NCBI GenBank assembly: GCA_026936335.1
Contig: JAPMXV010000048.1
Span: 3,584 to 67,583, forward strand
Length of the DNA: 64,000 nucleotides
Direction: 5' to 3'
Origin: Mantamonas sphyraenae STR306
Taxonomy: Eukaryota; Protista; CRuMs
The position numbers were made by a program, and so were the translations under genes. Under the pieces are notes generated by a model. The model did no database searches and had not been told where the DNA came from. It worked only from the letters and a program-made list of their open reading frames with translations. Within the stretch, counting starts at the first letter, position 1. Each line of letters opens with the position of its first letter. This document shows, piece by piece, positions 3,661-48,837 of the stretch.

Positions 3661-3882
3661 ACCACAAACAGGGACCATACATGGACTACTGGTTGACAGA
3701 TGGATGTGTCGACCTGTGTGGGCATGGAGGAAGCTCTGAGGGGCGTGGGAGCATCACTGTGGCCCTGTCGGTCCAACTTGGTCTGCAGCTCGTGGTTGCC
3801 CCGTCTGAGGCAACTCAACGCGATTGCACTTTGCACGTCACAGTAATCCGCTCGATCACTCACAAGACGCAAACAAGCAATC

Positions 3883-6509: not shown

Positions 6510-6608
6510 ACGTGCCTCTGCTCTAGTGTATTGTAGACGATGCCAAACACCGCATTGTGGCTCCATGGCTTCAGACACTGTGAGCCAGCCCATGAGCGTT
6601 CGACCAAC

Positions 6609-6965
6609 TGGTTTTCACGATGAAGCTCAGGTCCGGACCCCGGGTCATCGTCAGGAACCACCCAAGGTCGTGTGGCGAAAAAAAAAAGTTGTATATATAT
6701 ACCATCCTATGAATTTTTTTTTTTTTGGAGAGGTGGGGTGGTCTTGCCTCGGCTGGGTGAGAAGTGTGGTTTTCACGATGAAGCTCAGGTCCGGACCCCG
6801 GGTCATCGTCAGGAACCACCCAAGGTCGTGTGGCGAAAAAAAAAAGTTGTATATATATACCATCCTATGTTTTTTTTTTTTGAGAGGTGGGGTCGGCTGG
6901 GTGAGAAGTGTGGTTTTCACGATGAAGCTCGAGTCCGGACCCCGGGTCATCGTCAGGAACCACCC
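6609..6965. repeat. Tandem array of three ~55 bp palindromic boxes with AT-rich spacers; candidate replication origin
   Basis: TGGTTTTCACGATGAAGCTC(AG/GA)GTCCGGACCCCGGGTCATCGTCAGGAACCACCC at 6609, 6767 and 6911 (periods 158 and 144); spacers contain A11, GTTGTATATATATACC and a T12-13 tract. Confidence 0.9.
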
Positions 6966-7127
6966 ATCGGTGAAGATGTCCAAGGTCATGTGAACAAAAA
7001 CTGTCTGTATCGTATTGTTGTGGTGTTGTATTGTACTTTGGTAACGTTAAACCAATTGGTAGTCTCGCGAGCAGATGTGCCTCGCAATGCTCCAGCTGTG
7101 CCAAGATAACGTTGTGTAGTTCGCCAA

Positions 7128-7736
7128 ATGACCCATCAGTCAATTAAAGGTGATTCTGAAAACAAGTGCTCTGGTTCGATGCCGAGTGGTGCAATCGGTT
7201 CGTTGAACACACCAACGATGAACGATGGCGATGATGACCACAACATTGTTGTCGATGACAACGATGCAGACTACCGCAGCGGGTACGAACTGGAAGAAGG
7301 AATAGATGATGAGGCCGAGGAAGATAGGGGTGAAACCATCAGTGGAGTAGGGGGGTACGGGTTCCGTTTTATTGATGACGAATTTGAGGAGGAGGAGATT
7401 ATGGACTCGGAGGAGGAGGAGGAGATGAGGCAGTTTATTGCGGATGACGACGAGTTTTTGGAGTGCATTGAGCTTACAAGCAGTGACGAGGAGGACGAGA
7501 ACCGTTGGACGAGTGAGGAAGATGAGGACGATCAGTGGTACTACAACGAGGGGTCTGATGAGGAGGACAACTACGGCTATGCCAACTGGAGTGACTTGGA
7601 TGTGGATGTTGACGATTTAAACAGCTCATGCTACTCCGGAAGCGATGTGGACGACTCTGGAGATGACGATGACGAGATAATTCTCCCCCGCCGGCGCAAC
7701 CGACGTTCCATCCCAGACGATGAAGCAGAAGCATAA
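7128..7736 (+). CDS. Small highly acidic (D/E-rich) protein with basic C-terminal tail
   Basis: 202 aa ORF intact in both copies; long D/E runs, ends ILPRRRNRRSIPDDEAEA. Start may be a downstream ATG. Confidence 0.7.
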   Translation: MTHQSIKGDSENKCSGSMPSGAIGSLNTPTMNDGDDDHNIVVDDNDADYRSGYELEEGIDDEAEEDRGETISGVGGYGFRFIDDEFEEEEIMDSEEEEEMRQFIADDDEFLECIELTSSDEEDENRWTSEEDEDDQWYYNEGSDEEDNYGYANWSDLDVDVDDLNSSCYSGSDVDDSGDDDDEIILPRRRNRRSIPDDEAEA

Positions 7737-7990
7737 AAAGAAGGTGGGCTTTATAATTTCCTTGTTCTTGACACAGTGATGCTAAACAGTACGGGCACCA
7801 GCTCGCAAAAGTCAGCCTAGCTGGCGTATGTGTGTGTGTGATGAGTTGGTACCTCCTGGTTGATGAAGCAGCGTGCAGGACCAGGTCCGGACACCAGCGG
7901 CATCGGTTGGAGCACTCGATAGGCGAGTATGTTTTCCTGTTCGTGATGCGCCGTCACCCCCAACCAATCAAGATTTCGCTCAGTGGGGAT

Positions 7991-10900
7991 ATGCAGGGGT
8001 CTGACAGCCGGTCTGAAGCCAAGAATGAGGCTACAGTCGATGGCATGGAGCTGGAAACTGACACTGGACTGCCGTCGGCCGAGAGCACCCTCGCTGTGCA
8101 CAACCATCCGGCCACACAAGTGGAGCCTGTGAGGGGTAGCAACGAGCCTGTGAGGGGTAGCAACGAGGCTGTGAATGAGATTGTAGTCGATGTAGACAAC
8201 ACTACAGTCAAAGTTGGGATTGGGGAAGACGCTGAAGAGCCGTCGAGCACAGCGCAAAGAAAAGGCAAGGGTAAACTCGGCACGGGCTTTGGTATGTTCG
8301 AACGCAGGTACAGGAAAAGAGGTGGCCCCGTGTACGTACAAATCGGCGAAGAGACGGCGCGCATGGGTATTGGCAACATGGAGTACCCCGGGTACTGTGA
8401 GAAAATGCTGCGATGGTACCAGGAGCATGCAGCGGAGAACGTCGTGCCTCTGGCTGAGGCCACGTATGCCCAAGACATGGATCACAAACTGGTAGTTCAC
8501 TTCCGGTATGATGGCGATGAAGAGAACGACGGCGTTTACGTGACGCATACCAAGAAAGTGGTGCTCGAGTTTCTCCAAAAGCTGGTCGGCGAATACGAGG
8601 ACGAGGACATCGAGTTCATGAGCGTTATGTACACCATCATGGTCCGTCGCTCTGCTGACAAAGACGATCCATCTGTGTGCGTCCAGCTGGTTGTGGATTT
8701 GCGTGTGGATCGGGACACCGCAGAGCGCACGCTGGGGATCCTGAAGGAAATTGAGAAGAAGCTAGGTGGCGTCATGGTGTGCTCTGAAATGCTTCTTCCC
8801 GAACGACACTCACCTTCCATGTGTGGCTTGAACAGCGACCACCCTGTGACTGTCCTTCAGAGATTCAAGGGGACAGTGCAGCAAAAGGCTTGGAACAAGT
8901 CGGTGCGGAAATTGGTGATGAGCGAGGATTACAGCAAGCTACTGACAGCGTACAGTTCCACCAGTGCTCTGTGGCCGTACACCATGCAAGCTGAACAAAC
9001 GTGTCCTCCTGTGCTGGCAAACTGGCTGCTGCACAGGCTCGACACGTCCGACGAGCAGAGCACAATGTCCCTGGACAAGTACGTGTCCACGTTTCTCACC
9101 CAGCATGCTCAACACGAAGGTTTGCGCTATTTGGGGAGGATCTTGGAGGAGACTGCGCGTCTGATACCAACTCGCCTTCCGAGCGACTCTTGCAACACTC
9201 AGACAGCCACAGACACGATGAACACAGACGAAAGCGGAGCTTTTGACAAGACCTGGGAGGAAGCAGATGTACAGGTGCGCCGCTCGGCGTTTGGCAACGG
9301 TGCGGTGCGGCTAATCATCACCGACCAAGAGGAGCGGACACAAATCCGCGTCACCTCTCTCTCGTTTGCCAAAGGTGTACGTGTATGTACGGAAAGACGA
9401 AAACTGGGCTGTGTGTGGAGGGAATCCTCGGCACAAGGTGTCCCAGGTACCAAAGTCGCCCGATCTGTGCAACTTGGACCTGGACACGCTGCTTGTGCTC
9501 ATGAGCGCCATCCTGTACAACATACAATCACAGCCCGCCCGAACGATGGCGTCGGACTTGGAGAAAGAAAGGGCTGAGAAGGATTGGCTGGATGGTCTCA
9601 AGGAGAAGATCCATCAGCAGGATGTGTTTGTCCATGCCGGTCGCGCAGACGACAAGGAGGTGTGGGCCAAAATCTCGCAAGACATGGATCATCTGCGCCG
9701 TGACTACGAAGGGCAGGACGATATCGAGATTGAGGATGCAGAAGGCAATTTGCCGATGCTTGTTTATTTTGTGTGCGCACCAACGGCTCTGGGTAAGTCG
9801 CTTCTCCTCGCCCGTCTGCACTCCGATTACCTTATGCATGCCACAGATGGAGACGACAAAGAATCGGCCTTTTTGCAGTCCTCGCTGAGCATCATCTACC
9901 GGACTGCCTTGCTGCCAAGCCTGATGGACAACCTCCCGGGCGTCGTCTCGTACGATGACATCCGCAACGGCAAGCGCAGAAAGGAAGATGTGCAACACGT
10001 CGTCTCAACAATGGAGAGCATGCTGCGCCATGTGTACCACGAAAACATGGAGCCTGAGTTTGTCAATCTCGACGAGATCGCGCGGCTACCGAGCAAGCTC
10101 CTGGAACAAACGTTGGCACACAACGCACCGGTTAATGCGACCCTCGGCTGTATTTTGCGCACATTCATCACAGCCAAGATGCTGTACTTTGCCTCGGCGG
10201 AGTTGACGCCGGAGACGGTGTCGTTTGGGGTTTCCACCATCCGCAGGCTGGTTCCCAACCGCAATCTGCGTTTCCGTGTCATCGTAGTCGGACGAGAAAA
10301 AGCCACGTGGCATGGACGTGGTCATCCACCGCTCACAGGAGACGTTTCTGCAGCGCATGATCGCCGAATGGCAGCACCGTCCACAGGCTGACCTGGAGTT
10401 TCTCCGCGACTACCGCATCTTCTCTGCAGTGGATGACCTTGAACGCTGCTGCGAGCTCTACACCGAAAACCAAGCCGCTGTGACAGACCGCAAACCCACC
10501 GTGTACTTGGTAAAGGGCAAGGGAGTGGACAAAACGGAACAGGACCGGAGCGTCCGCAACCTGAACGCCATGAGCAAGAGTACATTCAAGCGGATTCCGC
10601 TGACCGATTTTCACAAGGCACAAAGCGAGAGAAAGCAAGGGCTTTTCCGCAATATGGCCAGGAGCCAATCGGCAAAAGGTTGCGCAGATCACGACGCGAC
10701 GTTTGTGACGAGCAAAATCGTTGAAGGAGTGAGCGTCGAGCCCACGGCGTTCGATTCATTCTCTTTTCTGCGGAAACCCGACTTAACATCACCCATGATG
10801 GTTGTGCAGATGGTAAACCGTGTGCGAAACGTCCCGAACGATGTGAACGAGGCGTTCTTGCGCTCGCAGATGAACTTGGTCTCCGTCGGACGGCACAAAG

Positions 10901-11497
10901 ATTACGTCGCGAATCTGGAGCTTCTTTTCAAGCACAAAAAGGACTTTGACCAGTACGCCAAGCGTCAGCATGCCAAGGATAGGTTGAGCAACAAGAGACT
11001 GTTTGGAAGTCCCCATAACGCCCAGCGGGACATGCACATGGGATCCTCAGACCCGTGCGATGTAGCATTCATGGTAGAGTTGCTGGCGAAATGGAGCGCA
11101 GCAGAAAGCTCTTCGTTTGATGCTCAGCAACTTGAGCGAGGCCTAGCGCACAACGGGCAGAACGTGTACTATTTCGACGCCCCAATCCCCCTGAGGGACA
11201 CAGATGTTGATGGTCATGCTCGCATCGTCCTGGAACCATACGAAAGCAACGTCCATGTCTGGACTGTGGACGGTGAAGTCACCCTACCCCAGCTACCAGT
11301 GTACGACGTCAACGTGCCGTACGGGCCGTCAAACTCGCAGGACGAGTTGAACGCCACAGATCGACCTTCCAAGCGTGATCGAAGCGATGAAGACGCCCGA
11401 GGGGTGAGTTTGATGACAACGAGAACCCCGTCGCAAAACACCAGCGGGTTGAGAAGGATCAGGGGGAGCCAGACAGCAGTGAGGAGTTCAATGACCT

Positions 11498-11533
<36 letters not shown>

Positions 11534-12866
11534 CAGTAGCAGTAGCAGCTCGGGACACAAGCTCGACACAACATCAGATCTGTGGCGCTTGTACGTATCC
11601 ACCGTCAAGCTTCGGTGCCAACGATATACACCGCCCACTTCAAAAGCGGAAAACAATGTACGGTGGTACGAGAAAAGGCGCCGCGGGGTCCAGCGGTTGG
11701 AGAAGGTCAACGAGAAGCTCCTGCGCCAGGTCGCGCAAAAGGTGGAGGAGTATCGTACCAACGACAAGTCAGAGGAGAAGTACAAGGAAGAATTGCAAAA
11801 GAACATGAAAACAGCCGAAGAAGGGGATGATGAGTACAGCGGACCGCAACCGGACATGGTGGACTTGTACTGCGGGATGTCACCTGCAGAACAACTGGGT
11901 ATCTGGGAAGCGATCCCCTACCGTGAGTTCGTGGCTTTGTTGGACTCTCCCAAGGAGCACTTATCATCCAGTGGCTGGTATTCAATCCAAGACAACCGTT
12001 GCAAACGCCTTCAGAACCTTGCCCTTCTGACATGCTCACAGAAAACGCTTCAATCTGCAGAGAAACTGAGCAGGAGAACTGTCAGGGAGACCTCGAAGCA
12101 CACAAATGCGCTCACGTCGCGCACAAACACGTCACCACCGCACTATAGCGACGACAAGGAAGTTCTGGACCGCATTCTGGGTTTTCTGGGAATACCAACA
12201 ACCGACGAGCTCCGGCAACTGGAGAAGGCGCCGGAAGACATTGTGTTATGTGCGTACAACACACCGAACACGAACGACGACGATCACGACGACGACGACG
12301 ACGACGACGACGACTCGACGGACAGGCAAGTGGTCTCGGCAGAAACCCTGGCCGAGATCCGTGACGTTGTCAACACACATGTTGACTCGGCCTCAGATGG
12401 CTGCTTGCTGGCCACCAAGAAGGTGGACAAAGAATTCACACTGTCTGCTGTGAAAACACTTCTATCGAAAGCTGGTGTGCCCATCATGAAGAGATCGAAG
12501 AAAGATGGTGACGGTGCACAGCCAAAATACGCCACGTACATACTGGCAGGTAAGCAACTGTTCGGCTGGGCCCAAGCGGCCAAGAATCTGCGGCGCCACT
12601 GGAAATGCACGCAGCAGGACAATAGTCAGTATTCCTCTGGCCGGGGAGAGGCGAGCGCCCAAGGTCAATGTCCGTGTAGCTTCCACGAGCTGGACCTTGC
12701 CAAGAAGTTTCGCCGCGGTGCGCACAGGTCAAACGATATCTACCTGGAAAATCCAACCGCCGACGATGAAACACAAGTGTGGAGTGAGAAGCAGCAGGCA
12801 CAACTGGATAGGCAGCAGCACATGAGTTCGAGCAACTTGACAGGCTTTGAAATGATAGAGACATGA
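7991..12866 (+). CDS. UL9-like origin-binding SF2 helicase, left copy (probable sequencing frameshifts at ~9360, ~10297, ~11400)
   Basis: ORF pieces 7832-9577, 9366-10391, 10312-11808 and 11589-12866 correspond to the single 1678 aa ORF of the right copy. Confidence 0.8.
8123..8167 (+). repeat. 21 bp in-frame tandem duplication (EPVRGSN x2)
   Basis: GAGCCTGTGAGGGGTAGCAAC repeated twice. Confidence 0.9.
11499..11549 (+). repeat. (AGC/AGT)n microsatellite encoding poly-Ser
   Basis: Seen directly; poly-S in the intact right-copy frame. Confidence 0.9.
12274..12313 (+). repeat. (GAC)n microsatellite encoding poly-Asp
   Basis: Seen directly; the right copy has one more GAC unit. Confidence 0.9.
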
Positions 12867-13010
12867 GCCCAGCGCCTTGATTGGAGCGCTCGACGAACCC
12901 GCACCGTAGTCAAGGAGCAGCAGCAACCACAATAACAAAACATAAAGAATCTTTCGCAACCGCTTGCTTTTTGTTGGATACCGTCAGGTGTGCAGTCGCT
13001 GTCCCACATC

Positions 13011-19068: not shown

Positions 19069-20683
19069 TCACCTGTCGCTCGTCATTGTGTGAAGATGTG
19101 CTGTGGTCCGTGTGGTCGAGTGAACTTCCAGTTCCCACACCCTGCGTGAGCCCACCGTGTCGTGTGGGGAGCCAAGATCCGAGTAAAAATGGCACTGTGG
19201 CGTGAGGCTGTGTACCACCAGACACACAATCCCCTTGTACGTCAGGCCCATTGCTGCCGTGACGACTTGGGTGTAGTTGACACGTCCTTTGGGTGCGTGT
19301 GCACACACGAGGTACATCGTTGGGGCGGCAATGGCGGTTGATGTCTCAGATTCCTTCAGAAGCTCGGCGGCGGTGGAGAGTACGCAGCAGTGCCCCTCAT
19401 ACCGCTTGGTGAGGAAGCAGGCCAGCGATTCAAACAAACGAACGTGTGTTTTGGAACTCACCACCAGCAATCGCTTGGCCATGCGGCTTTCGTACAATGC
19501 AGCCAGTTGAAGTGTCACGTAGGATCCCAAGCGAGTCAGGTGGACCTGCTCCAGCCGTTGAGTGTGAGGGGCGTCCCCGATGTCCTGTTCGCCAGACGTG
19601 TCGCCCTCGCAGTAGTCCCAGGTCAACTCTTCGCCAGCAGCGATGTCGCGCTGTGTCACTAGCCACCCTTCGCCGTCCTGCTCGATCATCGCGCAGTTGG
19701 GGGCTGCGCTGCTGTTCAGGAACGGAGCCAAACCCGGAACTGGACGGACCACATCGCCGCTCTCTCTCAATGTGAGCAGCAGCAGCGGTTTGTCTTGGTT
19801 CTTTGATACTTGTTCATCATCGTCCAGCGCAGCCACCTGCTCGTCGGACAACACGTGCCCTCGGTACGGCATCAGCGTTGTCCCTTGGACGAGTGCGTGT
19901 GCTGCCAACACATGCAGTCCCTTTGTTCGTGTGTAGGCCAGTGCCAGGTGTTTCCTCACCGACTGGCACACACCCAACCACGTCGTGTCGCTGTCGTCCT
20001 CACTGCACTGTGCGGTGCGGAGCGGGACAATTGTTGGCTCTTCCAGCAGGCCCAGCACCTGCGTCTGGCACGTAAACACATCCACCCCTTCTTCACGTAG
20101 AGCGTCATACACAATTCTGAGTCGGAGGGTGATTTGACGGGCACGGGCGGCTCCCACACGGTCTTGCAACCAGGCTAGAAACCAAGTCAACGCGGCAGGC
20201 GAGGCCAAGCAGGGAAACGGAGCCAGTCTGACGCCTCCGTACACCCAACACGCCCACAAACATCTCTGCTGCAGACTTGCTGGATAGTAAAGGGATAGAG
20301 TGGGTCGCAGAGAGCCGAGCAAGGTCATCGTGGGTGTCGAGGAGGGTGGCAAGTGCTGCAGTTGTGTTGGACACGCGCGACCATGCGAAACGTGCAAGGT
20401 GGCTGCACACTGCGTCTATGCTCAGGTGTCCATGCACAGCGAGGGTCACCAACGACGTCACAAGGTGTCCGACATACAAGGTGCCTGCCAAGAACTCGCG
20501 CTTTTGGTACGCGCGCGCGCGGAGTGAGTTCACACCACGCGTCAGCTCGGGTAGGTACTCGACACGCTGCCGTTTGATGGCAGGTGAGGTAGGAGTAGAT
20601 GTCGACCCCCTGCGGCGTTTGGCATGGGACATGAGTTGGCGGATGAGGCGCACAGTGCTACTTGCTACTTGGGAGGGCGACAT
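19069..20683 (-). CDS. SET-domain protein, left copy (probable sequencing frameshift ~20255)
   Basis: Same as 39653-41266. Confidence 0.8.
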
Positions 20684-21071
20684 GTCAGTGTTTGAGCGAA
20701 ATGGGGGGTTTGCGTACAAACGAAACCGTCTCTTGCACGGCTTGCTCAGACGAAACAGGCACCCTGGTTGGGGAGAAGTTTGCACAAATCCGGGTGAGTT
20801 CGGGACTGCCTGTTTGGATGAAGTTGGCAGTGTTCATCGATCCACCCACGGACACAGAGATCTTGTTCACCGATCGCTCGAGCGAGGATGCCTGGATAGG
20901 AGGGTGTCCAGAAACAGTGCCAGATAGATGCAGAGTACTAAAACACTGGTCACTTGAACCAATGGGCCCAGGTTGTTGTCTCTTGGCTTGTTTGGGTGGG
21001 GTGGGATCTGGCGAACAAAATGGCGCAATTTTGGTGTTTTGCCAGGCCGCGAGCGTCCAAGCAAACCGACA

Positions 21072-23925
21072 ATGTCTGTGCGTGACACCGTGTCAACCAT
21101 AGAGTCGTCAGAGAGTTTGGGCATGGACTCGTTCAACGGAGAGGTCACCGTCGCCTCACCTTTGCAAAGAGTCACGCGGCTCCAACGCAAGCGGACCCTC
21201 TCGACCAGCTCAGACGGCTCCAGTGCAAGCAGCGCAAGCAGCGAGACGCAGACGAGCTCGCGCACTCGCACATCGCATGAAACACATGCAGAGAAGCGGC
21301 AGCGTGTGGAGTCAACAACGTTGGGGGGAGAGGGAGAGGAAGAGCAGGAAGAGCAGGAAGAAGTGGTCGAAAGTGGGTTGCGTTTTGTGCTGATCACCCT
21401 TTGTTTTCGGGCGTCGACGCTGACACCTGGTCGCACAAAGGCACACCTACCGTTGCTGTGAGTCAGGACGATACCCAGACTGGTGCAACACATGATGCGC
21501 TCACCGAACAGGCAGTTGAGGAAGCAGGGGAAGAGGTGTCGGCGAGCACGATGGACGTTGAGGAGATGGCGAAGAGCGACGGCGGTGGAGACAAAGGGGG
21601 CGCCGTCCAGCACTCGTCGGTACAGACACCTTCTACAACTGGATCACAGGAGGAGGGTAGAGGTGTTACGTCTCCCACTGTGTTCACCGTAGAGGATGAG
21701 GAGGAGGAGGAAGGGGACGTGACCCCCTCGCAAACAAGCGCAGGCTCCATGGCGGTCGGTAAGTTCTGCCCAAAAGGGGTAGGGGGCAGCGGTATAAAGG
21801 CCTGACGCGGATGCTTTTGGGTACAGAGCCAGCAAGCGAGCCAAACCTGAGCTCTGACGCTGCAGAGACTCTGGACGAGGTGAGCCCTTTGGACGCCTTG
21901 TCCGACGTTGATGAGGACGACGGGGGCGACGAGGATGTGGAAGTGAGAGCACGGATTGCACACATCAGGCAAAGAAGAGCCACGGGAGAGGAATCTCCCT
22001 TTGAGCGAGTTCGTCAGCGGTTTGCCGAGATCAAAAAGGCGCTGAACGCAGATCGACAGCGTTGGAGGACAGCGGCCGGTCGTCAGGACAGCCAGGTCCA
22101 CGCAGAGGCAACAAAAGGTACAGTGGACTTGCTCAAGCAACTGGCTCCAGTGTCCATTGACCGAGACGAAGTGTGGCGCTTCGCCATCGGACAAGAACAA
22201 GCGGTGGACATCTGGCACTACGAATGGTACACCACGACAAACCCGTACGCTATGAGCAACCTAAAAGACCTCTGGTGCGTGTTTGTGCTGGGTGCAACCG
22301 AGGAGGAGCTGCAGGCAGTGCCCGAGGCTCAATGGCGCGACATGGTGGCCAAAACGGACAACCTGGATACAGTGTTGGGCCTGTACTTGCGCACAGAGTG
22401 TGTAGCTCCATCAGAAACACCCCTGCGACGCGTAGCCACCAAAGCCCTGGGATTGAACACGACGTACAGCCTGGCCGAGTTTGTCATCAAGCAGAGGTTG
22501 GCGCGTGGTCAAGGGGTGGCGGGAGGAGGAGACGAGACACAGTACGATGATTCTGAGGGAGGTGGCAGACGAGGGAGTCGTCGATCGGGACAGGCATCGG
22601 AACGAGAACAACGTGGCGAAAGTTCCGAGTCACTCGAGTTTTCTGATTTGCACATGCGCTTCATCGACCAATGGGGCGCTGACGATATGGCACGGATGAT
22701 TCGTCACATGTCGTTTAATCATGTCTGTACGCACTACAAGGGAGACACTGCGAGGCACAACACCGTGGCGGGAAGTCCGGTCCAGATGATTCGGCGTTTC
22801 GTCTTGGGGTTCAAGACACCCCAGATCAAGCAGCTGTACGCCACTGGGTTTGGCAAGCGCACCAAGGGGTCGCCGTCCTTTGCCATGGTCTCATCGTCGT
22901 CGTCGTCGTCGTCGAGCTCAGCAGTCGATCGTCTGGACGCCCACATCTCTGCGGTGCAGTTGCTCATGGAGGCCATGTGGCACTGTATGGGTTTTTGGAC
23001 AGAGCTGTGCAGCATGGTTCATTCTCTGGCTGCGCCCAATTCCAACCCACAGTCGCCTTTTCGTCTGCTGGCCCAGAACGTGGCCCGCGATATCGTTTAC
23101 ATGGACGAGGACAACCGCCGACACATCACAAACCACAAAGCCGTCATTTTGCAGTTTGTGCACCTGTGGCTGCCCGTGGAGGAGTACCCTCTTTTTCTCG
23201 AGTTTCACCGACTCGGTGCGCTGACGCTGATCCACGAGGGTGTTTCCTACCGCGCGTACGGTGATTTGCTCGAGCTGGCTCGAATCAACACCAAGGATGA
23301 CTTTGCGGCAAAGATGGACATGCTGGTGGGCAGAGTGACCGTCAAGCGCTGTGTCGGAGTGCAGTATGGAGGGGGTGAGTCAGACTTGGTCGAGCTGGGA
23401 GGTGACGATGACATCAACCAGGCTATCAAAGACATCAAACAAGCCAAATCCTTTCCGGGGGCACAGGTCACTCACGAGGGTGCCATGGCGTTGCATCCCC
23501 TGGGCAACTGCGTGTTCAATCGGGCAGTCAAGACGGATCTGTGGGCGGTCGAGGAGAACGGGCTCAGCTGGGAGCAAAAGGTCGTGTTTGGGTATGTGCG
23601 CAATAGGCTTCGTGCTGCTGGGTTTCCGGTGGAGGAGCTGAGGAACGAGGAGAACGATGAAGAAGACCTCAAGGACTATGCGTGGTGGCTGGAACGAGCG
23701 GGGGAACCAAAGTGGGCAGACCTGCCGAATGGGTGCAAGAGAACGCTCAAGGGGTGGTTGATGGCATGCAATCGGCTGGTGGAGGGTGATATGGTCCATA
23801 GGGAGGCGGGTGAGGTGGTTCAGAGGATCGGGTGGGACGCCGTGCACCAAACCTACGCCCCACTGCTCTGGTTCGTTGTCAATGCGGTGGGGTGTCAGCA
23901 AGCGCGCGCGTGGGTAGCAGGGTGA
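21072..23925 (+). CDS. Orphan ~905 aa protein, three exons (21072-21372, 21441-21758, 21827-23925)
   Basis: Two 68 nt phase-1 introns (GTGGGT..CTGAC..AAG; GTAAGT..CTGAC..CAG) join the 162, 134 and 704 aa ORFs in frame; acidic disordered N-terminus with RKR and KRQRVE. Confidence 0.75.
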
Positions 23926-24757
23926 GGGGGTGCTATTTGTGTGACATCATCAAGGAAAGAGCACAAACCAGGACGACTGTTTACACACCGCCTTGCTCTT
24001 GTCGTGTACCCAGGTGCCGCTCTTGGCTGCAGTATGCAGTGCACATGTGCTTGCACCACACCCGCCCCATTCTGGGTCGCTGCCAACACCCACCATCCAG
24101 CAGTATTACCCATATGCTCAAAACTGTCCATTCTCAGCACCATCGCACTCCGTCGCACCGCCACCGCTTCTTCGACTAGCCTTTGCGCACAACGTTATCC
24201 TGCTTGTAATTTGGCCTTCGTCACGCGCGACTACGACGACCACCTCACCACCACCACGATGGACACGTGCTGGAGCAGCAACTCTCCCAGTGACGAGCGT
24301 GGCAGCTGCACGGCGCGGGAGTTCCAGACGCTGCTGGCACTCATCAAAGCACGCACCCTGGCCGTCACCATGCACACGAACACCAAGCAATGCGTGAGCT
24401 GATCAACAACAGTGACCTGATGTCCCTGCTGGGGAAGACACGAAAGAGCAGAGGCAGTCATACACAACACATTGGCAGCGGCAGATGCAACACACGACCA
24501 CGGAAGAGCACAAGCAGGCATGAACAAAAGCATGGGTGGTGGGGGTGGCAAGGAGCGCATTGGCCCTGGCATCACCCTGTGGTTTGCATTGTGCAATGAA
24601 CGGGATTTTCGATGCTTGACGAGTCCATGGTTGCGGGTGGCAACTAGCCACACACACACGGGTGCCCAGTAAACAACCCAACGCCTTCGCCTGACACTAG
24701 GGAAGCATGTTGTCGCATCCCGTTTTGAAAAGACGACACACTCTACACTCTTCACCT

Positions 24758-27700
24758 CTAAAAGCGTTTGAAACGCTTGGCAATCCGCTCGAGATGCCTC
24801 TTCGCCGCTGACATGTTTTCCTTCCACTGTGGATTATTGCCCTCTTGCGCGTTTGCGTACTCACAGCACGTGTAGTGGTCGATGCTACGCAGGTCCCGGT
24901 TCCAGCCCCGTTCTTGTGGAGACCTTGAATGGCCAGGCCTGGAGGGCATCTCCACGTGCCATGCACGCCCCACAGGGCACGCACGTTGATGCATCGCGTC
25001 TTGGACAGTCCTGCAGTGCACTTGACGTTCACAATACACGTCAGGTGGTTGCACCCGCTTCGCTCCAAACCCGAAATGCCGTGACCACTGGGGCAGTTGA
25101 CCCAGCCGCCAGCGTGCAGAGCGTGATTCCACTTGAACCACTTGCTCGGCGGCAAGCCTTGCACATAGTTGGACTTTCCGCACCTAGCATCCTTGATGCA
25201 ATTGAGCCCAGTGCATCCATACGTGGTCACGCCGCTAGCAATCGTCGACGTCGGGCACTCGGCCTTGCCAGCCTTGCTCATGTGGTGGTGCCAGTGGACG
25301 GTACTTGCCACTACCAGTGCCTTTGGATCTTCAGGCTTCTCCGTGTACTTGCAGCACTTGTAGTGGTCCACCATGCCCAGGTTGCCCGTGGACACGGGTC
25401 CCGCACGATGGATGGCTTGCAGACCCCATCCCACCGGACACCCGTGTTCGCCCTTCTTCTTCAGGTCCACACGCACAAGCTTGCACTCCTCCGACAGGCC
25501 GTACGTGCACCGTGCCTTCTGAATGCAATCCAACGTATGGCAGTGGTAGCGCTGGAACCCAGACACGCCATAGCCCTTGGGACAGGTTGCCCATCCACCA
25601 GCACGCAGGTACTCCCACCACCACAACCACACCTGCTTCGGGTTCTGTTGCCTGCGGTTCTTCTCACACACAGCTCCCTTGATCTCCCGCAGGTTCGTGC
25701 CACCAGACGTTGTCAGAGACTGGACAATGTACCCGCTCTTGCACTTGGCTTGCGTACTGATCGTCTTGCCCATTGTGTTGCCCCAGTCTGCCCTGCTTGT
25801 CGCAAATGCTTCTTGATGTTTCGCCTCGGCTGCGAAATCCTTGGCTTCTTGCGCGTTTGCGTACTCACAGCACGAGTAATGGTCGATGCTACGCAGGTCC
25901 CCGGTTCCAGCCCCGTTCTTGTGGAGACCTTGAATGGCCAGGCCTGGAGGGCATCTCCACGTGCCATGCACGCCCCACAGGGCACGCACGTTGATGCATC
26001 GCGTCTTGGACAGTCCTGCAGTGCATTTAACGTTCGTAATGCATGTCAGGTGGTTGCACCCGCTTCGCTCCAAACCCGAAATGCCGTGACCACTGGGGCA
26101 GTTGACCCAGCCGCCAGCGTGCAGAGCGTGATTCCACTGGAACCACTTGCTCTTCGGCAACTCCTTTGCGTAGTTGGACTTTCCGCACCTAGCATCCACG
26201 ATGCAATTGAGTCCCTTGCATCCATGCGTGGTCACGCCGCTAGCAATCGTCGACGTCGGGCACTCGGCCTTGCCAGCCTTGCTCATGTGGTGGTGCCAGT
26301 GGACGGTACTTGCCACTACCAGTGCCTTTGGATCTTCAGGCTTCTCCGTGTACTTGCAGCACTTGTAGTGGTCCACCATGCCCAGGTTGCCCGTGGACAC
26401 GGGTCCCGCACGATGGATGGCTTGCAGACCCCATCCCACCGGACACCCGTGTTCGCCCTTCTTCTTCAGGTCCACACGCACAAGCTTGCACTCCTCCGAC
26501 AGGCCGTACGTGCACCGTGCCTTCTGAATGCAATCCAACGTATGGCAGTGGTAGCGCTGGAACCCAGACACGCCATAGCCCTTGGGACAGGTTGCCCATC
26601 CACCAGCACGCAGGTACTCCCACCACCACAACCACACCTGCTTCGGGTTCTGTTGCCTGCGGTTCTTCTCACACACAGCTCCCTTGATCTCCCGCAGGTT
26701 CGTGCCACCAGACGTTGTCAGAGACTGGACAATGTACCCGCTCTTGCACTTGGCTTGCGTACTGATCGTCTTGCCCATTGTGTTGCCCCAGTCTGCTGCG
26801 AACGAAAGGGTCGTGGGTTTTTCCACAGTTTCGGCAATATACCTACAGCACTTCAATTTCGTGAGGTCACCCAGATGACCATCCGCTCCGTCGTTGTGCC
26901 TGTAGAAGCCATTGATACCGAAACCGGCGGGACAACTGTGCGTACCGCGCTTCCCCAAGCCGTGCTCGAGGTTGACAACTTCACAATCGTCCTTGTACGT
27001 GTTCAGTGTGCACTTTAGCATCTCAATCCCGGTCAGCGAGTGGCTGTTGCCGCGCTGCAAGCCGGACACACTGTAGCCTGCTGGGCAGCTCTTCCATCCC
27101 TTGACGCTCATCTTGCTGTGGACTTCCACAAATGCGTCCAGGTCGTTCTTGATGTTGCGCGTGCAACAATTGGCCCGTTCCAGGTTGACCAAGGCGCCTC
27201 CTGTCGTCTCCAACGAGTGCACAGACGTGCCTGCGGGACAGGATGACATGCCGGCGCGATCGAAAGAGCTGTACCAGTTGCCCACTTGGCACGACACGGC
27301 GCCCTCAGGCGGACCGACGTCACGGAGCTCGCAGCACTTGATGTGATCCACAGTGTCCAACTCTCCATGGTGCGAGCGGTTGGTGCGATGCAGCGCCTGC
27401 AACCCGTAGCCAAACGGGCACGAAACGCTGCGGCTTGCCTGGCCAATCCTCAACTTGATGACGATGCACTTGCCTATGTCAAGTCCGTCTACACACTGCA
27501 GTCCCTCCAGACACATCACGCCGTGGCAGCCGCCTTGTTTGCGCAGAAAGCCTGCAATGCCGTACCCGACGCGATGGCAGTGGAACCAGTGCTCATTGAA
27601 TGATCCACGGAAAGTAATCTCCCTGCTGGCATGTGCGTGAGTGCAGCAATCAGCGCCGTTCAGAGTTCCCAGGCCCATGCCGTGGCCCTTCAACAGGCCG

Positions 27701-30700
27701 GTGATGATCGCTCCACGCGGGCATCGCACATGGGCTCCAGCAGCAAGATGCCACTTGTGCTCACTGCATCGCTTCAGTGATTTGACTGTGAGTTCGCGCT
27801 CGGCGTCGAGCCGCTGTGTGGGGCTGTGCACCTTGAGCACACCGTCAACGGGCGCCTGGACGTTCTTCTCTTGCGCTTTCCTCACCACCTTTTGCAGTTC
27901 CTCCCAATACTCGTCCAAAATCACACGTGTCTTGATCAGAATTGATCTCACGAGGCCGAGCATTTGCTGTCGGCGAGCCTTGCTCACGTGCAGGTCTTTC
28001 AGACGGCGCAGATCAGCAATGGCCAATCCTCGGTCACGGAGTGCCTTGCGTGCTTCCTTGCGCAGGTTGCGCATCTCAGGCGTGTTGAACATACCCACCA
28101 TGGCCTTCTTGATGTCCGACTTACCCTTCAACTTACCGCGCTCGTCGGCGATGGTCGTGCACAGCTGCAGCTGTAAGCGATCGTCGTTCTCCTTCATCAT
28201 CGTTTCGGTCATCCGTCTGCCACTCTCTGCAGCTTTTTTCTCTGCAGCCTGGGCCTTTTCGGTCTTTCTCTTCAGAATCGGTGAAGCCATTTCGATGAAA
28301 TGTGGTATCAGCTTGGGATCCTGTTTCAGAAGCTCCTTGCGGTGATAGTCGACCGATGCAAACGTCCGTATGCTCAAATCAGTGTACTCCTTGACTTCGT
28401 AACCCAACACCGCCACCGCCTGAGAGTAGCCCTTCATTCGGCTCTGCGTGGTTTTGCGCATGTGCTCAAACGCCGCCACGGGCATCATCTTCAGATCCAG
28501 CAGACGTACTGCTTCGGCGGCGCCCAGAGCACTGATACGATGGTTCATCATCGAGACGAAGCGAGACTTCAGAACGCCATCGGGCTCAGTGGTCAATGCA
28601 TGGTCCATCAGCTTGCGCGAGATGATCAGGCGCAAACGCTTTTGGAACAGCTCTTTGCGCTTCGTGATACGTTCGTTCTTCATGTGCGCAGACCCAATGG
28701 CCTTCGTGATCACGGGCTCGCCCTCTTCTGTGAACGCGTTGTACCTGATACCTTTCCTCTCAGCCTCATCAAAATTGGCGTCAACGCCTTTTTGATGCGT
28801 GAACACATGTTTCAGCGCATGCTCGATCACCTTCTCGTCCACTTCTACACCGGTGTCTTTCTCCAATTGAGCCCATCGGTAATGCATTCCACCCTTGACA
28901 CTCTTCCGATACTCCTTGGCGTTTTCGAACGAATGGAACACAAAGGGGTTAACGTGAACGAGTGCCTCTGGTACAATCAGCTTGGAGGGATCATATGGAT
29001 TGACCAATCGATTCGTCGTTGCTTGTCGTCGATGTAATAATACACTCATAGCAAGGTCCTCGACGAGCTGCTCGTCTTCTTTGTCCGCTTGATGCATGCT
29101 TCGTTGCGCCATCGCGGACATTGGTTCGGCTGAAGCCCACCCGAGCACGTCGGACGAGTCTCGGGTGGAAGGCAGCATGGCCAAAATGTCCGTCGGGATC
29201 TGTTGGACGAGCGAGAAACGCTTTTTGGCCTCATCGCCATAGCTGTCCCTGTCCGCCACGTTCTTCGCGTTTACCATAGCGCTTATCTGGTCCCCGGAGG
29301 GCAGCTTCCACTCAAAGTTAGCCAGCTCCTTCTTGAACTCGGTGATCTGAATTGTTTTGTCGACCAAATCGATGCCGAAAATCGAGATTTTAGCGCCGAC
29401 CAAAGGTCGCAGGCCAGCGCTCAATGTCAGCGTGTTCCTGTTGGCCACACCTTGGTTGTGTACCTTCTCCGCTTCTGTAGGCTCTTTCAGCTCATACTTG
29501 CTGTTGTCGACCGCAATACACTTCGCAGCGCCCTGCGGCTCAAATTCGGCCAGTGCGAAGATTTGGAGCGCAAACGAAGGTCCCGAAACGGAGTACAGAA
29601 GGGCACTGATCTTTGGCGTCAGGGTAATTTCCAGCGAAATCGTAGCGCACGGTCGGAATCCATGGGGGCCTTTTCGCGTTACCTCGATCGACTTTTCGAA
29701 GATAGGGCTCAAGTCCAGCTTGCCGTTCACAAACTTGGCTTCCAGACCCAGCCTCAGTGTAGCCGTAAGGGTTGCCTCGAAGTTGAATTGGAATCCTGCC
29801 TGTAGAGCAAGGGATGCACCCAAGTTCAGTTCTCCCTCGACCAGAATGACCACCGGCACCGGGCCAATCTGAAAGTTGAACGTCACGATGGGCTTCTTCA
29901 ACACCTCCTTTTCCTTTGACCAATCGAGCCTGCCAGACACCTGGGCAAACAGGTCGACCTTGGTTGTGAGTTGGGCACCCAGAGCAAACTTGATGCGCTT
30001 TGGCTTGTACTTGTCAATCCTGATTGCCAGTGTGAACGTCGGCGCCACCTGCGCCTTGGCCTCCAGAATACGAAGTACGATGTCCAGAGAAACGGAGACT
30101 TTGGTCTTACTGCCATTCCTCTCTTTCTCCCTTTCATGTCCAATTTTGGCGTTCAGATCAACCTCTTTGACCTGGAACCCCACACCGGGAAACTGCTCGT
30201 CGATGTTCAGCTCGGCTGTTCCACCGTTGAGCATGTCCCATGCAAACTTGGCCATTTGGCCCACCATCTTTCCCACCTGCACCAATGCAGCGCCGATGCT
30301 TTGGGCCACGTTTGCGACAACAGAGGCGACCGCCGTGGCCACCTGGATGGCTGTGGCAGCGATTGCCTTTGCCTTTGCAATCATATTGTTGGCAAACGTG
30401 GTCAGTTTGGTCAGCAGCTTCTTCGTGAGGGCAGTCGCTGCTGCCACGAGTGAGTGCAGAGCATTCTTGAGGTCGTTCAGTTTCTCTGTGATGAAGGTTA
30501 CGAGGTTGTTGAACGTCTCTGTCATTCTGTCCCACGCTTGCCTCAAATGTGCGTCGAGAGATGTGAACGCGCGGCCGATCTCACCGGCTAGTTGACCGAG
30601 GACACCTCCGACCGAAAGAGCATCTTCCACCTCCTCATCTGCCTCGTCACCCTCCTCGTCATCGTCGGCAATGTCAAGCGCCAAACTCTCACCGTCGATT

Positions 30701-32390
30701 GGGAACTCTTCATGCAGCTCATCATCAAGCCCAGCGTCGGCAAGCTCCTCAACTGAGGAGTCCACGTCCTCGCTCTCGGAAGTGAACCCAAACTCGGCGT
30801 CATCGATGTCTGTGCCCGCTGCTTTGGCCTCCGCCAGACCATGGGCAACCAAACGTGCTGCCTCCACAACGTACTCGCGGTGCTTGTCAAAGTACTCGCG
30901 GGCAGCTCCGGAAAGCTTTTCGCCGTACTCATGGCTCAGGGCCTGCAGTTGCGTCGAGGACGGGTCCTGGTCAGAGATGCGACGCACAGCCTCCGAGACC
31001 TTTTGCAAGGCTTCGTGTGCGGCTTCGTCGTGCTTGTTTGCTGTTGCAACAGCCGCATGATCCTTGACCATGTCGCGCAGGATCTGCACCTGCTCGTTGC
31101 GGCGAGCGGCCACACTTCGGTCCTGGACTTTGCCGGTTTCCACGTCCTTGATCAGGTCAGACACGTCGGTGACCTCCACGTGAACGGTGGCATCCTTCAC
31201 TGCGTCTTCAAGGTCTGCGTTTTTCACACGCAAGTGGTACGGCAAGGAATCCTTGTTGCACTGCGGCAGTTGGCCAGGCGACCAAGCTTTGGCTCCGCTC
31301 GGGCTGTTGATGGCCGTGATCTTGTACAGACCTGTGGCAATGCCAAACACGGAGCCGACCTTGATCGACTTGCTGTGGCGGTGCATAAACACGCAGGTGG
31401 CGGTGAAAACACCGTCACGCGCATCTCCACCCTCTGGAATTAGGCCTTGCTTGGCAAGGTCTTGCATGCTCCCAGAGTGCTTCAGAAATGTGTACTCGTC
31501 GACATCGCTGAGAAGGCCGTGGGACTCATGAAAGGGCAGATCGGCATCGTCCACGTCTTCAACATCCTCAGCCGAAGACTGCACCGAATCAACATCGAAC
31601 GTGTACTCTCCGTTTGCTGCTTGAGCACGGTGAAAGTTCTCGCTCATGTGCTTGGAGATCAGGGTCAACGCACCGGTGCGAGACAATGCGTTCAAGGGCT
31701 TGGCCACGTGGCTCAGGTGCGAGTCCAACCCCGCTTCGATCTCGAAAAAGTCCGGGTGCGTGTTCACCTCTCCACGAAGAAAGGTCCGCACGAGCGATTT
31801 GCCACGCAGGGATGCGTTCAAAGGGTACTGCTTGTAGACACGGTGCGTGGCATCCGAGATGGATTCGTCGCTCAGCCCCAAGTCTTTCTTGTACAGCTCC
31901 AAGGAGAAAAAGTCGTCCTCGGAAATGTCTTTTTCGTTCACCACGTGTGCGGCATCACCGTACACCGTGGTTCCTTTGTCGAACCGTTCATGAAGCTCCC
32001 CCTGGGACAGCCCAGCATCTGTTTGCCGACGATGGGTAGTGATGTTCAAGCGTTGGTGAACATGTGTCAGTCGGAAAAGTTGAGCTTCAACAACGAGAGG
32101 GAAAAAGGAACGCGGACCGAACCCTCCAGAAAAGACAACGTGTCCCACAGCAAGAACTCACACCGAGAACCGGCTCCACGCTCGCCTAAAGTCGGGGAAA
32201 GTGCACGTGCCACATCTGTGGATGTAGGGTGGGCCCAGTTTTGCCCCAGAGTGAGTACAGACGCGCGGAAAGGATGAAAGAATGCATGAAGACCACCCAT
32301 CCTTCCATTCGGGAAAAACTCACCGGAGATGCAGGCGAACACAAGGACAATTGCTAAAAATTTGGCCCATCCATGGCGTTGCATCATCAT
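24758..32390 (-). CDS. Very large secreted protein (~2,450 aa): acidic region, amphipathic helices, beta-rich domain, basic coiled region, C-terminal Cys-rich repeats
   Basis: Signal-peptide exon 32390-32324, exon 32215-32162, main exon from 32018 (GTGAGT..CAG introns of 108 and 143 nt, phase 1). A missing C at ~24897 shifts the last repeat; the true stop is likely 24758. Confidence 0.8.
24843..26796. repeat. Intragenic ~1005 bp tandem duplication (24843-25791 / 25847-26796)
   Basis: Identical ORFs at offset 1005; protein block ADWGNTMGK...CCEYANAQE occurs twice with few substitutions. Confidence 0.95.
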
Positions 32391-33039
32391 CGGATGGGGA
32401 TTGACTGCTGATAACATCGAGTGAGTTTGTTCCAGCAGAATTGAAATGCATCAGCTACAGCGATCACTCCGCGGAATTCTCCTCTACGTAGTTGGACGAC
32501 CCTTCTCCCATTCTCGTTCGTTCGTCGGCCTGGTTACAGTAGTCGAGGCCACTCAAACCGCCTCTCTTTCCTCTCATGCAGCTCCCTTGCGCCGTCACAC
32601 TCCAATGATGCTGTAACTTGCAACTTCTCTTTCTCGGCTTCTGCAACCTTTTCCTTCTCTCTTCTCTTCTTCCCTTCATGTCACCGATTTCGATCTTGCC
32701 TGCATCGGCGTCCTCCACTGGCTGACGGCTGTGACACATGCGCTGAACTCAATGGATGACGTCGAACTGAGGCTTCGGTGCATCTGGCATGGGCGGTGCA
32801 CTCCATGCAATGCCAATTTCCTTGCAGTTCGCCCTGCGTTCTTCCTGTCACGGCCCTAGCGTTCCCACTGCCCCCCAATGCGACTTCCACTCGACCTTCA
32901 TTCAGATTGGAGGATTTGGTCGTGACTGTTGGCATCATCCTTGCTCTTCTCGCCTTGTCCGCTCTGGTTTGGAGGGCACGCATGCGGTCAAGGTGGCGGA
33001 TGAACGTAGTCAACACACCATGTTGATGAGAGTTCAGAC

Positions 33040-34179
33040 TCACACCACCTGCACCTGCACCAGTGCTTGCCTTGTGGGCATCAAGTGGATTTCATAGACC
33101 CATTTCTGCGAGAAATAATGAAAACAACGCGGCTGAGCCACTGGCACCTCGCTGCACACATCTTCGAGTGCGGTGCGGTACTGGTTGCACCAATGTTTTC
33201 GGCGAAAGAAGATGCCCCAGAGAGTCGGCACAAACACAACCACAGCACCCACGATTAGAACACCCATTCCTGTGTCTAAAAGCGCCAACACCCACCATTC
33301 CGTCAGAGAGGCGAACAGGATGAGGAGCACAGCGAGCACAGCAGCTGCCCCCATCATCCACAATCCAACTCGTGCCACCCGAAGAACACGATTAAGCTCC
33401 CCCGTGTGCTCTTCAACCACCTCGTTGAACCGTCTGGTTCCATTGTCGATCAGCTCGTCCAGTTCTCGCTTGTCCAGTTCCAGATCGGACGGTGCGTCTG
33501 CGAAGATGTCAAATCGTGACTCTCGATCTTCACCCGCAAACGCGTGCCACAAGCTCACCCACACACCGTCCACCTGCTGGCGAGGTGCATTTGGATGCAG
33601 AGGGGTGGGCGTGGATCCGTCCGAAGTGTGGTGAAAGACAAACGACTGCACATTGTCGGTGCGCTTGGCATCAATGTCCTCAAAGTCCACGCGTAGGTGA
33701 GCCCTTGCATATGAGGGATTGGCGTTGTGCCGAACGCACAGCTCTCTTGCTGCCTCCACCCAGGCTGACTGGATAAACGACGAAACTACGATAGAGGTAA
33801 TCAGCAGCAAAATCCCCAGTCCATACAGACTACCCATCACAACAAACACGGTGGCGTTGCAATCGTCATCCACGAAGAACAAAGGCAAGATGGAGAGCAT
33901 CCCCAGACACAAGGGAACGTACGAAGCTGACACCAAGCGGAGCTGGACACCCCTAAGGTGATGTGTGCGCTGAAAAGCCACCATGGCGTCGTCTATGGGA
34001 GCATTGAGATCGTGCAGATCAAGGAACTGTGGTTGTGGTTTGTCCAAAAGCGGAAATGAGCAAACTCTGGCAACTGCCGCCAAACTCCATCGCGCCCAAA
34101 CTCCACCTGCGATGCACACCCCGCTCACTCGCACCAACCGCAAGAGAGTGTGGTCTCTGAGTTCCTGGTCGTTTTGCAT
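33040..34179 (-). CDS. Membrane protein with two pairs of TM helices
   Basis: 379 aa ORF with hydrophobic hairpins (YVPLCLGMLSILPLFFV/VFVVMGSLYGLGILLLITSIVV and GLWMMGAAAVLAVLLILFA/GMGVLIVGAVVVFVPTLWGIFF). 5' structure uncertain. Confidence 0.6.
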   Translation of the reverse strand: MQNDQELRDHTLLRLVRVSGVCIAGGVWARWSLAAVARVCSFPLLDKPQPQFLDLHDLNAPIDDAMVAFQRTHHLRGVQLRLVSASYVPLCLGMLSILPLFFVDDDCNATVFVVMGSLYGLGILLLITSIVVSSFIQSAWVEAARELCVRHNANPSYARAHLRVDFEDIDAKRTDNVQSFVFHHTSDGSTPTPLHPNAPRQQVDGVWVSLWHAFAGEDRESRFDIFADAPSDLELDKRELDELIDNGTRRFNEVVEEHTGELNRVLRVARVGLWMMGAAAVLAVLLILFASLTEWWVLALLDTGMGVLIVGAVVVFVPTLWGIFFRRKHWCNQYRTALEDVCSEVPVAQPRCFHYFSQKWVYEIHLMPTRQALVQVQVV

Positions 34180-34585
34180 GTGTGTGCTCTCCCTTGCAAA
34201 GGCCCATCACAGAGCAAGAGCGGGTGAAAGTGCTGGTGCAGAAATTGGCTGGAACTCACTTGCGCAAGCTCTGCAGGCACATCGTTCCAGCGCTGGAAGG
34301 ATGCAAAGCGATCGTTGGGAGTGCTATGGTGTCTGCTGAACCATGATTTCTGGAACGACATGCAGATTGGAGTGAATTAGTTGGAGCGGCCCGGGGGGGT
34401 TCTGGAAGACACTGAGCCAACAATCAGCACGGCCACTGCATTTGAGGACTTGCGTGTGTTGGATATCCATTTCATGGATGCTGTTACCCGCTGAGTGCCT
34501 GTGCCCCTTCAGTGTTCATCGCACCGGCACCTGGTTCTCGACGGTTGCTTTTCTACCTCAAAGCACGCATGTGTTGACAATCAGG

Positions 34586-35300
34586 TCAATTACAGCTTGG
34601 TTGACAATATTCACAAGCACATTTGCCCTTGCAGCTCTCTGGACTGGCACACATGGCGGTGGGCTCGGTGCTGAAGCGAAAGTTGATCTGGAAGGGGCTG
34701 AAGGGGCCACGTTCGCCCATGAAGGACAGGAAAGCCATGGCATCGGGCCACTCCTTTTCTACAACGACTCCCCCACCGAATGGTACCAGTGTGCAGGAAT
34801 CATATAGGCCGTTGGCAAAGTCTGGGCAGACGGTGAACTCGACGACCTGGACTTGGCCGTCGGCTGCGTGTTGAGTGACCTTGACAAAGTCTTGTTGGAG
34901 CGGGTTGCACGTAAAGGAGCACCAGAGGGTGTGGATGTTGTTAATGCACGATTGGCAGTCGGCAAAGACGTTGTCCACAACGTTTTTGAACTGGTTGTAG
35001 ATGACTTTGGTCTGGTTCACGGTGCAGCAGTGGGATTGGTTGAAGGCTCCGCAGTCGACGAGGTTAGAAGTCTGGAAGAGGGTGAGCAGCGTGGAGGCCG
35101 GGATAAGGTGAAAAAGAGGCAGAGAGGGTGAGCATGAGCAGAGGGCGAAGCGTACACGCCGGTAAGACAACAGCAGCAGGACATACATTCAAAGGTGCAG
35201 AGTTAGGATACGTGTAGGGCGGGTTGCCGTGCATGACACAGTTTGCATGGACCATGGTGACAGCGGCCACGAGAAGGACAAAGGGAATGGTCCAGCGCAT
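34586..35300 (-). CDS. Stand-alone secreted NPC1 N-terminal (sterol-binding) domain protein, ~199 aa
   Basis: Signal peptide exon 35300-35187, 115 nt GTATGT..CAG intron, exon 35071-34586. Cys pattern CC..Q...CxSCxxN..xxWCxFTCxPxQxxF...FANxLYDSC...PFxINF...CxCxxCxxSC is typical of NPC1_N. Confidence 0.85.
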
Positions 35301-35675
35301 GGTTTTGGTTGCGCGGAGAGGAGCGAGGGTGTTGGGAGCAGTCATGCAAGGTGGATCGTTGGAGGGAGTGAGAGGTAGGGAGATGTGATACGTACAAGAT
35401 TCGGATTGGAGCTTGCGGAACAGGCCACACTTTGGTGTATTCGTAGTGACCGAGCATAGTTCGTTTGATGAGACGCTGCAAGGAGACAGAAACCATTCTA
35501 CCAATGCCCAAGTGATAGGATAAACACCCGTCAGATGCTCCCGAACGTGCAACAGGCCATTGTCGTGGACGCGTTTCCCACCGTTGCAACTATTTGAATG
35601 TTTGGTCTTTTTGAACATTTCTGGAATCTCTGGGGAAGTGACGTGGAAAGCAGGGTGCGGCGTGCACGGTTTTTT

Positions 35676-36238
35676 ATGAAGGAACAAGTGGTAGGTGCAC
35701 AAGGCAGTGGGCTTGGTTGAGAATTTGGAAGCGCAAACTCATTCCCACGCCACGCGTCACACTGTCCGACTCAACAGCTGGTTGAATTTGTGGCCCTCGT
35801 CGTTGATATATGGGCTTTTGGGAACTGGTTGTATGGTGCTACGGCCCTGGGTAAGCAGTGTGTCTAACTACAACCCTCTTGTTCGAAGCTGACACTTCAC
35901 ATCGACTTGTTGCAGCGAATGCACTCTGTGTCGTCCTGTGCAGTGCTTGTGCTTGTAGTTGCTGTACCAGAGACCCTCGCCAACTATATCGTGCATACCA
36001 GCTGAGTGAGTCTGCTGTATGCGTTTCTGTTCTTTCCAACCTCATCCTCGCTCTGGCGACGATGTTCGAGACCGAGTTTCCGATGCGCCTTCTTATGGCG
36101 AGCATCTTCAGTCTGTTTCGTATCGCTGTCATGGTTCCTATTCTCTCTGGGATGCGTGGGCTGAAGACGCAGATGGAGCTGGAGGAGCAGTTGGATACTG
36201 CAGAGCTCGCAGTGCCTGAGGATGCAGCCAAACTGTGA
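35676..36238 (+). CDS. Small multi-pass membrane protein (~136 aa), three exons
   Basis: Exons 35676-35690, 35778-35850 and 35916-36238 joined in frame by GTAGGT..CAG (87 nt) and GTAAGC..CTGAC..CAG (65 nt) introns; several hydrophobic segments. Confidence 0.6.
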
Positions 36239-36410
36239 CGACTCGACCCGGAAGACACCTTCAATGAACAATCCGAGACATACCAAAAGTGTACAGCCAA
36301 CACCTCAGGTGCACAGCGACGGTAGTCCAGACCCATGGCACAACCACATCCTCCAGGCGCTGGACGACGATGCATAAGAATAGACAGGCATGTCTGCAAA
36401 ATCATATTCC

Positions 36411-48017: not shown

Positions 48018-48049
<32 letters not shown>

Positions 48050-48801: not shown

Positions 48802-48837
<36 letters not shown>

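Follow-up and report, generated by a model that had tools for sequence, protein, structure and literature searches.

Why does the inner boundary of a large inverted repeat fall within the last codons of a gene, and how do both flanks come to supply a stop codon at the same position? This question is raised by a 64,000-bp stretch of Mantamonas sphyraenae DNA (hereafter the window), for which a first-pass annotation had proposed target-site preference, microhomology-guided insertion or a third intron. Our results show that the feature is real, and wear at the inner edge of a large palindrome is its most likely origin. In the form that we favor, with a probability of roughly 0.4, the nine bases past the boundary are the eroded edge of a palindrome whose arms are kept identical by arm-to-arm conversion, and erosion has stalled at the first coding sequence.

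The palindrome consists of three parts:

4-23918, no strand: left arm, which reaches the start of the window
23919-36417, no strand: spacer of 12,499 bp with host-type, intron-bearing eukaryotic genes
36418-64000, no strand: right arm, with its mirror image in the left arm as far as 60342

Aligned with each other (4-23918 against 36418-60342), the arms show 99.83% identity over 23,944 columns with 30 gap openings. Hence, they are long, inverted and more than 99% identical, as the arms of a palindrome should be. The gap openings crowd toward base 1, and the open reading frames that they break are mainly those of the left arm, a pattern to be expected of assembly errors near what we presume to be a contig end. 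Perfect identity of the arms ends at base 23918, mirrored at 36418, with the terminal sequence TGGGTAGC (23911-23918). The repeat finder places the arm ends at 23927 and 36409, because it was carried through a partial match.

Read evidence was obtained from four runs of one study (X1-X4), and no data set from any other study was found to contain the stretch. Of the four runs, X1 and X2 are possibly source data and none is independent. An X1/X2 contig of 11,629 nt shows no differences from the arm over the part compared (20500-23918) and ends exactly at 23918. A single contig of 12,432 nt spans 53800-64000 and a further 2,158 nt, at a depth of 264 in X1 and 189 in X2. Because this arm-depth contig runs past 64000, the arm must be at least 29.7 kb long. 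Its outer end was not found within the window, as the right arm keeps the same depth to 64000 and over the 2,158 nt beyond, and no copy of the inner end was found near 59000-64000. The stretch from 60290 to 63630, which starts where the mirror of the left arm ends, is error-rich and unpolished (>100 gaps and 36 substitutions relative to the read contigs), and its open reading frames are unreliable. Furthermore, an X1 contig of 6,720 nt at depth 55 contains two 20-mers of the arm (56443-56462 and 58104-58124), by chance or as a diverged relative from another place in the genome.

The left-junction contigs of X1 and X2 have depths of 108 and 91, with 30 nt on the arm side, compared to 264 and 190 for the arm, and X4 bridges this junction to 23966. 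In one X1 contig, arm sequence gives way after 23918 to the 30 letters of the right flank. A long-read hairpin artefact was rejected on this read-contig evidence. In the part of the spacer that was covered, its initial 800-900 bp, depth was 108-131 in X1 and 91-102 in X2. This gives an arm-to-spacer ratio of 1.9-2.4 for these 800-900 bp, and hence a spacer at about half the depth of the arms. Relative to unrelated contigs collected from chance matches (seven in X1 with a median depth of 55, five in X2 with a median of 39), the depth of the arm is 4.8-4.9-fold and that of the spacer 2.0-2.6-fold, although depth is not copy number and a heterozygous diploid baseline could give the same ratios. 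The raised depth may reflect an episome, an amplified chromosome or a diploid baseline.

The spacer contains genes for an NPC1-N protein, a protein of >2,300 aa, a protein of 379 aa and a small predicted membrane protein. Three of its features are needed below:

24270-24430, no strand: left-flank relic of a family with very high copy number, at a distance of 350 bp from the junction
24758-32400, minus strand: gene of the giant protein (>2,300 aa) with Cys-rich repeats
35676-36238, plus strand: predicted three-exon membrane-protein gene of 136 aa (hand-made gene model)

The relic has a summed depth of ~30,000 from many short matches at 90-99%, and is very high in all four runs. The giant-protein gene carries an internal duplication of 1 kb (24837-26796, 97%), and a probable assembly frameshift near 24895 masks its stop at 24758. 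The 136-aa predicted gene stands tail to tail with the gene at the right boundary, with 172 bp between their stops.

This boundary gene, here called G, is present at both inner ends of the palindrome:

21072-23925, plus strand: left copy of gene G, 905 aa once the introns placed by X3 joints are removed
21373-21440 and 21759-21826, plus strand: the two introns of G, 68 nt each, from X3 joints
36411-39264, minus strand: gene G, right copy, its start placed by mirroring the left copy
23902-23910, no strand: (GC)n run GCGCGCGCG within the coding sequence
23919-23927, plus strand: left 9-bp edge AGGGTGAGG, containing a TGA stop
36409-36417, minus strand: right 9-bp edge GAGGTAAGG, read as the reverse complement, containing a TAA stop

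X3, which is not recorded as RNA, was taken to be RNA solely from its GT..AG joints (three skips) and its gene-limited cover. The protein encoded by G had no match in 1.84 billion protein representatives, further homologue and family searches were also blank, and its single-sequence fold reached a pLDDT of only 37.5. The two copies differ in the final residue alone. The left copy ends in GTA GCA GGG TGA (VAG*) and the right copy in GTA GCG AGG TAA (VAR*), with stops at 23923-23925 and 36413-36411, so that the two open reading frames have equal lengths. Arm identity thus stops 4 bases short of the stop codon. Beyond the left stop, the frame remains open for 156 codons and crosses the high-copy relic.

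The end of identity, the flanks, the equal lengths, the VAG*/VAR* ends and the (GC)n palindrome had all been described in the first-pass annotation, and we confirmed them from the sequence. We rejected any role of the (GC)n run, since 4.8% of random positions have an 8-bp palindrome within 20 nt.

The two edges have 6 of 9 bases in common, and each of the three differences is an A/G transition, a pattern that had escaped the first-pass annotation. The changes GCA/GCG, which leaves alanine in place, and TGA/TAA, which exchanges one stop for another, are silent, while the third turns the last residue from Gly to Arg. The first-pass annotation had called the flanks unrelated. This is doubtful over the first 9 bases; beyond +9, the likeness is insignificant (1392 of 6000 random pairs were as good). 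A match of at least 6/9 occurs in 0.5% of random spacer pairs, or in 1.7% if window length can be chosen freely, and all-transition mismatches were found in 198 of 5,236 random 6-of-9 pairs. Both properties together were found at 17 of 62,360 and 16 of 57,733 positions (~0.03%, or ~3 in 10,000 random flanks), a rate to be read with the caveat that the transition criterion was post hoc, picked after the data had been seen, and that many boundaries had been read at the first stage. Because the mismatches are all transitions and two of them are silent, the first 9 flank bases are, judged from their letters, probably related to each other rather than unrelated DNA.

Extending this homology to +29 was rejected, since the likeness past +9 was not significant. 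The 29-nt flank alignment was equalled by 105 of 6000 random pairs under one scoring scheme, by 209 and 495 of 6000 under two others, and by 208 of 4000 pairs in which both members had a stop. A longer likeness between the two spacer ends was not found, the top local match being 15 nt. The shared stop and the donor-like ends add little that is separate. Equal length of the open reading frames and the resemblance to splice donors both result from the same 9-bp match, because G+stop+G reads GTRAG. A stop at the matching codon was found in 49 of 112 or 13 of 64 flanks with a 6/9 match, and a stop at that codon is expected by chance with p = 0.022. The position of the boundary within 10 nt of a stop has a rough chance of 0.35% for a random break.

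In the frayed-edge reading, the duplication would once have run at least to +9. Gene conversion from arm to arm would keep the arms identical, yet would rarely reach their last bases. The 3' untranslated DNA would then have diverged first, and the edge would have withdrawn as far as the coding sequence, in which purifying selection would keep the copies alike. The boundary in the last codons, the equal lengths and the donor-like ends would all arise because the edge had retreated to coding sequence. This is the only host-side reading that accounts for a boundary within 10 nt of the stop. It is favored by the mostly silent, all-transition pattern with its joint rate of ~0.03%, and it is consistent with arms that are recovered in single contigs of 11.6 and 12.4 kb at ~2x spacer depth. 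Several points weigh against it. Past +9 no significant likeness remains, and to have three changes in 9 bp next to kilobases without any would require an old repeat and strong conversion. Transitions would also be tolerated by annealing (G:T) or expected from a purine-degenerate target, and the statistic is post hoc. Moreover, the fraying step is one that we infer, and the accessible portions of PMC3723533 and PMC8327919 offer no precedent for it.

Possibly, the nine bases did not wear away from an arm but primed its formation. One junction would then be native to G, and the other would stem from one fold-back or template switch (or from an arm deletion in a tighter palindrome), for which imperfect microhomology including the nine bases would have served as primer. 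The spacer of 12,499 bp lies within the ~1-70 kb range of human fold-back duplications (766-70,466 bp), which have 2-8 bp of microhomology according to the available part of PMC3907307, and secondary arm deletions enlarge spacers in yeast (PMC10766183, in the part available). If G:T wobble is allowed, the plus-strand 9-mers can form an uninterrupted run of 7 base pairs, and the right flank looks native, with 172 bp between convergent stops versus 144 bp for another pair. However, the pairing energy is modest, as 230 of 3000 random 9-mer pairs were as strong, rising to 1423 of 3000 at 22 nt, and in a separate annealing test 68% of random pairs were as strong. The break 4 nt before the stop is left unexplained, and any perfect microhomology would be concealed inside the arm. 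We consider this origin unlikely. A single blunt rearrangement with a fortuitous likeness, on which selection for a stop close by may have acted as a filter, seems improbable: taken singly, the 6/9 match (p 0.005-0.017) and the stop at that codon (p 0.022) would be compatible with chance, particularly as both 9-mers are purine-rich and many boundaries were read at the first stage, but the joint rate with the transitions and the position at a gene end are not easily reconciled with it. Errors of assembly have a smaller chance still. The spacer might be mis-joined, with the copies unlinked or allelic, or an invertible segment might have been assembled as a false palindrome; short-read contigs do break at the high-copy relic near 24310-24330, the contig evidence on the spacer ends at 24830, the window includes the unpolished stretch 60290-63630, and X1 and X2 are possibly the source data. 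Yet read contigs contain both junctions, and a contig covering 23889-24321 is unbroken. An invertible, shufflon-like segment was rejected, since the left spacer end has one upstream neighbor and the depth of the spacer is half that of the arms, not the same, as expected of an invertible one. The third intron proposed in the first-pass annotation, with GTGAGG and GTAAGG as donors and a different last exon for each copy, is the least credible of these explanations. Both donors fit GTRAG, as does the GTAAGT donor of intron 2 of G, and AG acceptors lie ~50 nt downstream on either side. In X3, however, both upstream introns have joints while 23922 has none, and the contig continues unspliced from 23922 to 23928 without a fork, a weak test as it reaches only 10 nt into the flank. 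In addition, GTRAG is frequent (138 in 80 kb of strand).

An alternative explanation of another kind involves the contents of the arms, which include a predicted replication module:

47466-52493, minus strand: predicted UL9-like (Herpes_ori_bp) superfamily-2 helicase of 1675 aa, from language-model features
53824-56505, minus strand: UvrD-type helicase gene with one 111-nt intron (PF00580, E 6e-15; X3 joint)
52429-56830, no strand: 45-bp dyads (GATGA-N11-GGACCWGGTCC) at scattered sites, with an AT-rich tandem repeat of 157 bp

The 1675-aa open reading frame has a feature score of 0.96 to mostly viral clusters in which 11-88% of the members carry PF02399. Profile and homologue searches found no alignment-based match for it, and the single-sequence fold of its helicase core had a pLDDT of 33.0. 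Homologue searches with the UvrD protein were blank; X3 contigs cover its gene and the adjoining gene. The dyads have 10 matches over both arms versus 0.16 expected, and together with the AT-rich tandem they may be origin-like. The whole module (47466-56830) is mirrored at about 3500-12870. Other arm genes encode SET, beta-propeller and ankyrin proteins, and the arm genes have host-type introns. A large Cys/His-rich gene on the plus strand (57142-61034) is covered by X3 contigs at a depth of ~270.

With such contents, the arms could belong to a giant virus-like mobile element whose last gene lacks its own stop and which was inserted twice, in opposite directions and in an att-like manner, at stop-supplying RRGGTRAGG sites. 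This is possible, though rather unlikely. The predicted UL9-like helicase, the UvrD helicase and the origin-like dyads would suit such an element, as would the identity of the copies, the intergenic nature of both flanks and a purine-degenerate consensus that fits both. The position at the gene end would also be accounted for. GGTRAGG-N8-TTTG occurs at these two sites only in the window, a motif that was defined from them, and endogenous viruses of protists, as described in the available part of PMC10120064, carry primase-helicases with a tyrosine recombinase or an rve integrase. Conversely, the open reading frames scanned in the visible 27.6 kb of arm yielded no recognized integrase family, no tyrosine-recombinase pattern turned up when the right arm was searched with crude motifs, and HxxR was not found in G. 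No capsid or packaging families were recognized among the 20, 13, 9 and 7 proteins scanned, where remote capsids can escape. Base composition is equal in arm and spacer, the introns in the arm genes are of host type, and the arm extends over at least 29.7 kb, its end lying out of view. The earlier suggestion of target preference or microhomology was right in that the likeness is non-random, but its consensus rests on two sites: the read-contig matches listed contain at least two junction types, 12.5 kb apart, and no third flank type. The 23-nt junction pattern was not found in metagenomes, homologue searches found no relative or other strain and hence no outgroup, and no tRNA was found, nor any Rfam family in bases 20000-64000. 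A fuller version, in which the arms are a giant protist virus-like replicon with a UL9-like initiator helicase, UvrD and a dyad origin, RRGGTRAGG sites complete the terminal gene, 12.5 kb of host genes were captured at the palindrome center and there are ~2.4 copies per ordinary locus, appears doubtful.

If the frayed-edge reading is true, the locus is a small, clear-cut case of a palindrome edge retreating to the first coding sequence, and its interest is modest. Of more value is what surrounds it: a module that is expressed, bears introns and comprises two helicases along with origin-like dyads, within a palindrome of raised depth. If the element replicates itself or inserts site-specifically, microbial eukaryotes would gain a new kind of large mobile DNA.

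Boundaries of the inverted repeats of plastids and herpesviruses can fall in or beside gene ends, and their arms are homogenized by recombination. Our boundary, which is close to a stop codon, may be of a similar kind, but differs in that the genes here are of nuclear type with spliceosomal introns. Fold-back and ODIRA duplications likewise place an inverted copy beside a single-copy spacer of kilobases with a short inverted likeness at the spacer ends, in the available text of PMC3907307 and PMC10766183. In contrast to these, the likeness here is imperfect and lies inside the spacer, and the spacer is at 2-2.6x the depth of unrelated contigs. Virus-like helicases, introns in virus-like genes and raised coverage are shared with endogenous polinton-like viruses and mirusvirus episomes, as far as the accessible parts of these sources go (PMC10120064; PMC12606086; PMC12768974), and an episomal virus of Aurantiochytrium has 9:1 coverage (PMC12606086, same part). 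Unlike those viruses, capsid, packaging ATPase, DNA polymerase and integrase were not recognized in the sequence in view, and there is no GC shift. In architecture, the locus resembles gene-converted palindromes on the X and Y chromosomes of primates (P6 among them), with long inverted arms >99.8% alike, a single-copy spacer and arm coverage of ~2x, in the portions available of PMC3723533 and PMC8327919. In the human Y palindromes, the arms are >99.9% alike by conversion and coverage of the arms is ~2x that of the single-copy spacer (PMC3723533, in part), and palindrome centers are where structural change concentrates (PMC8327919, in part). The present case differs from primate palindromes in its setting in a gene-dense microbial eukaryote, in a boundary in the last codons of a gene and in the virus-like helicases of its arms, and conversion is here something we infer. 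The palindrome itself is an ordinary kind of structure, although a predicted virus-like replication module is encoded in its arms.
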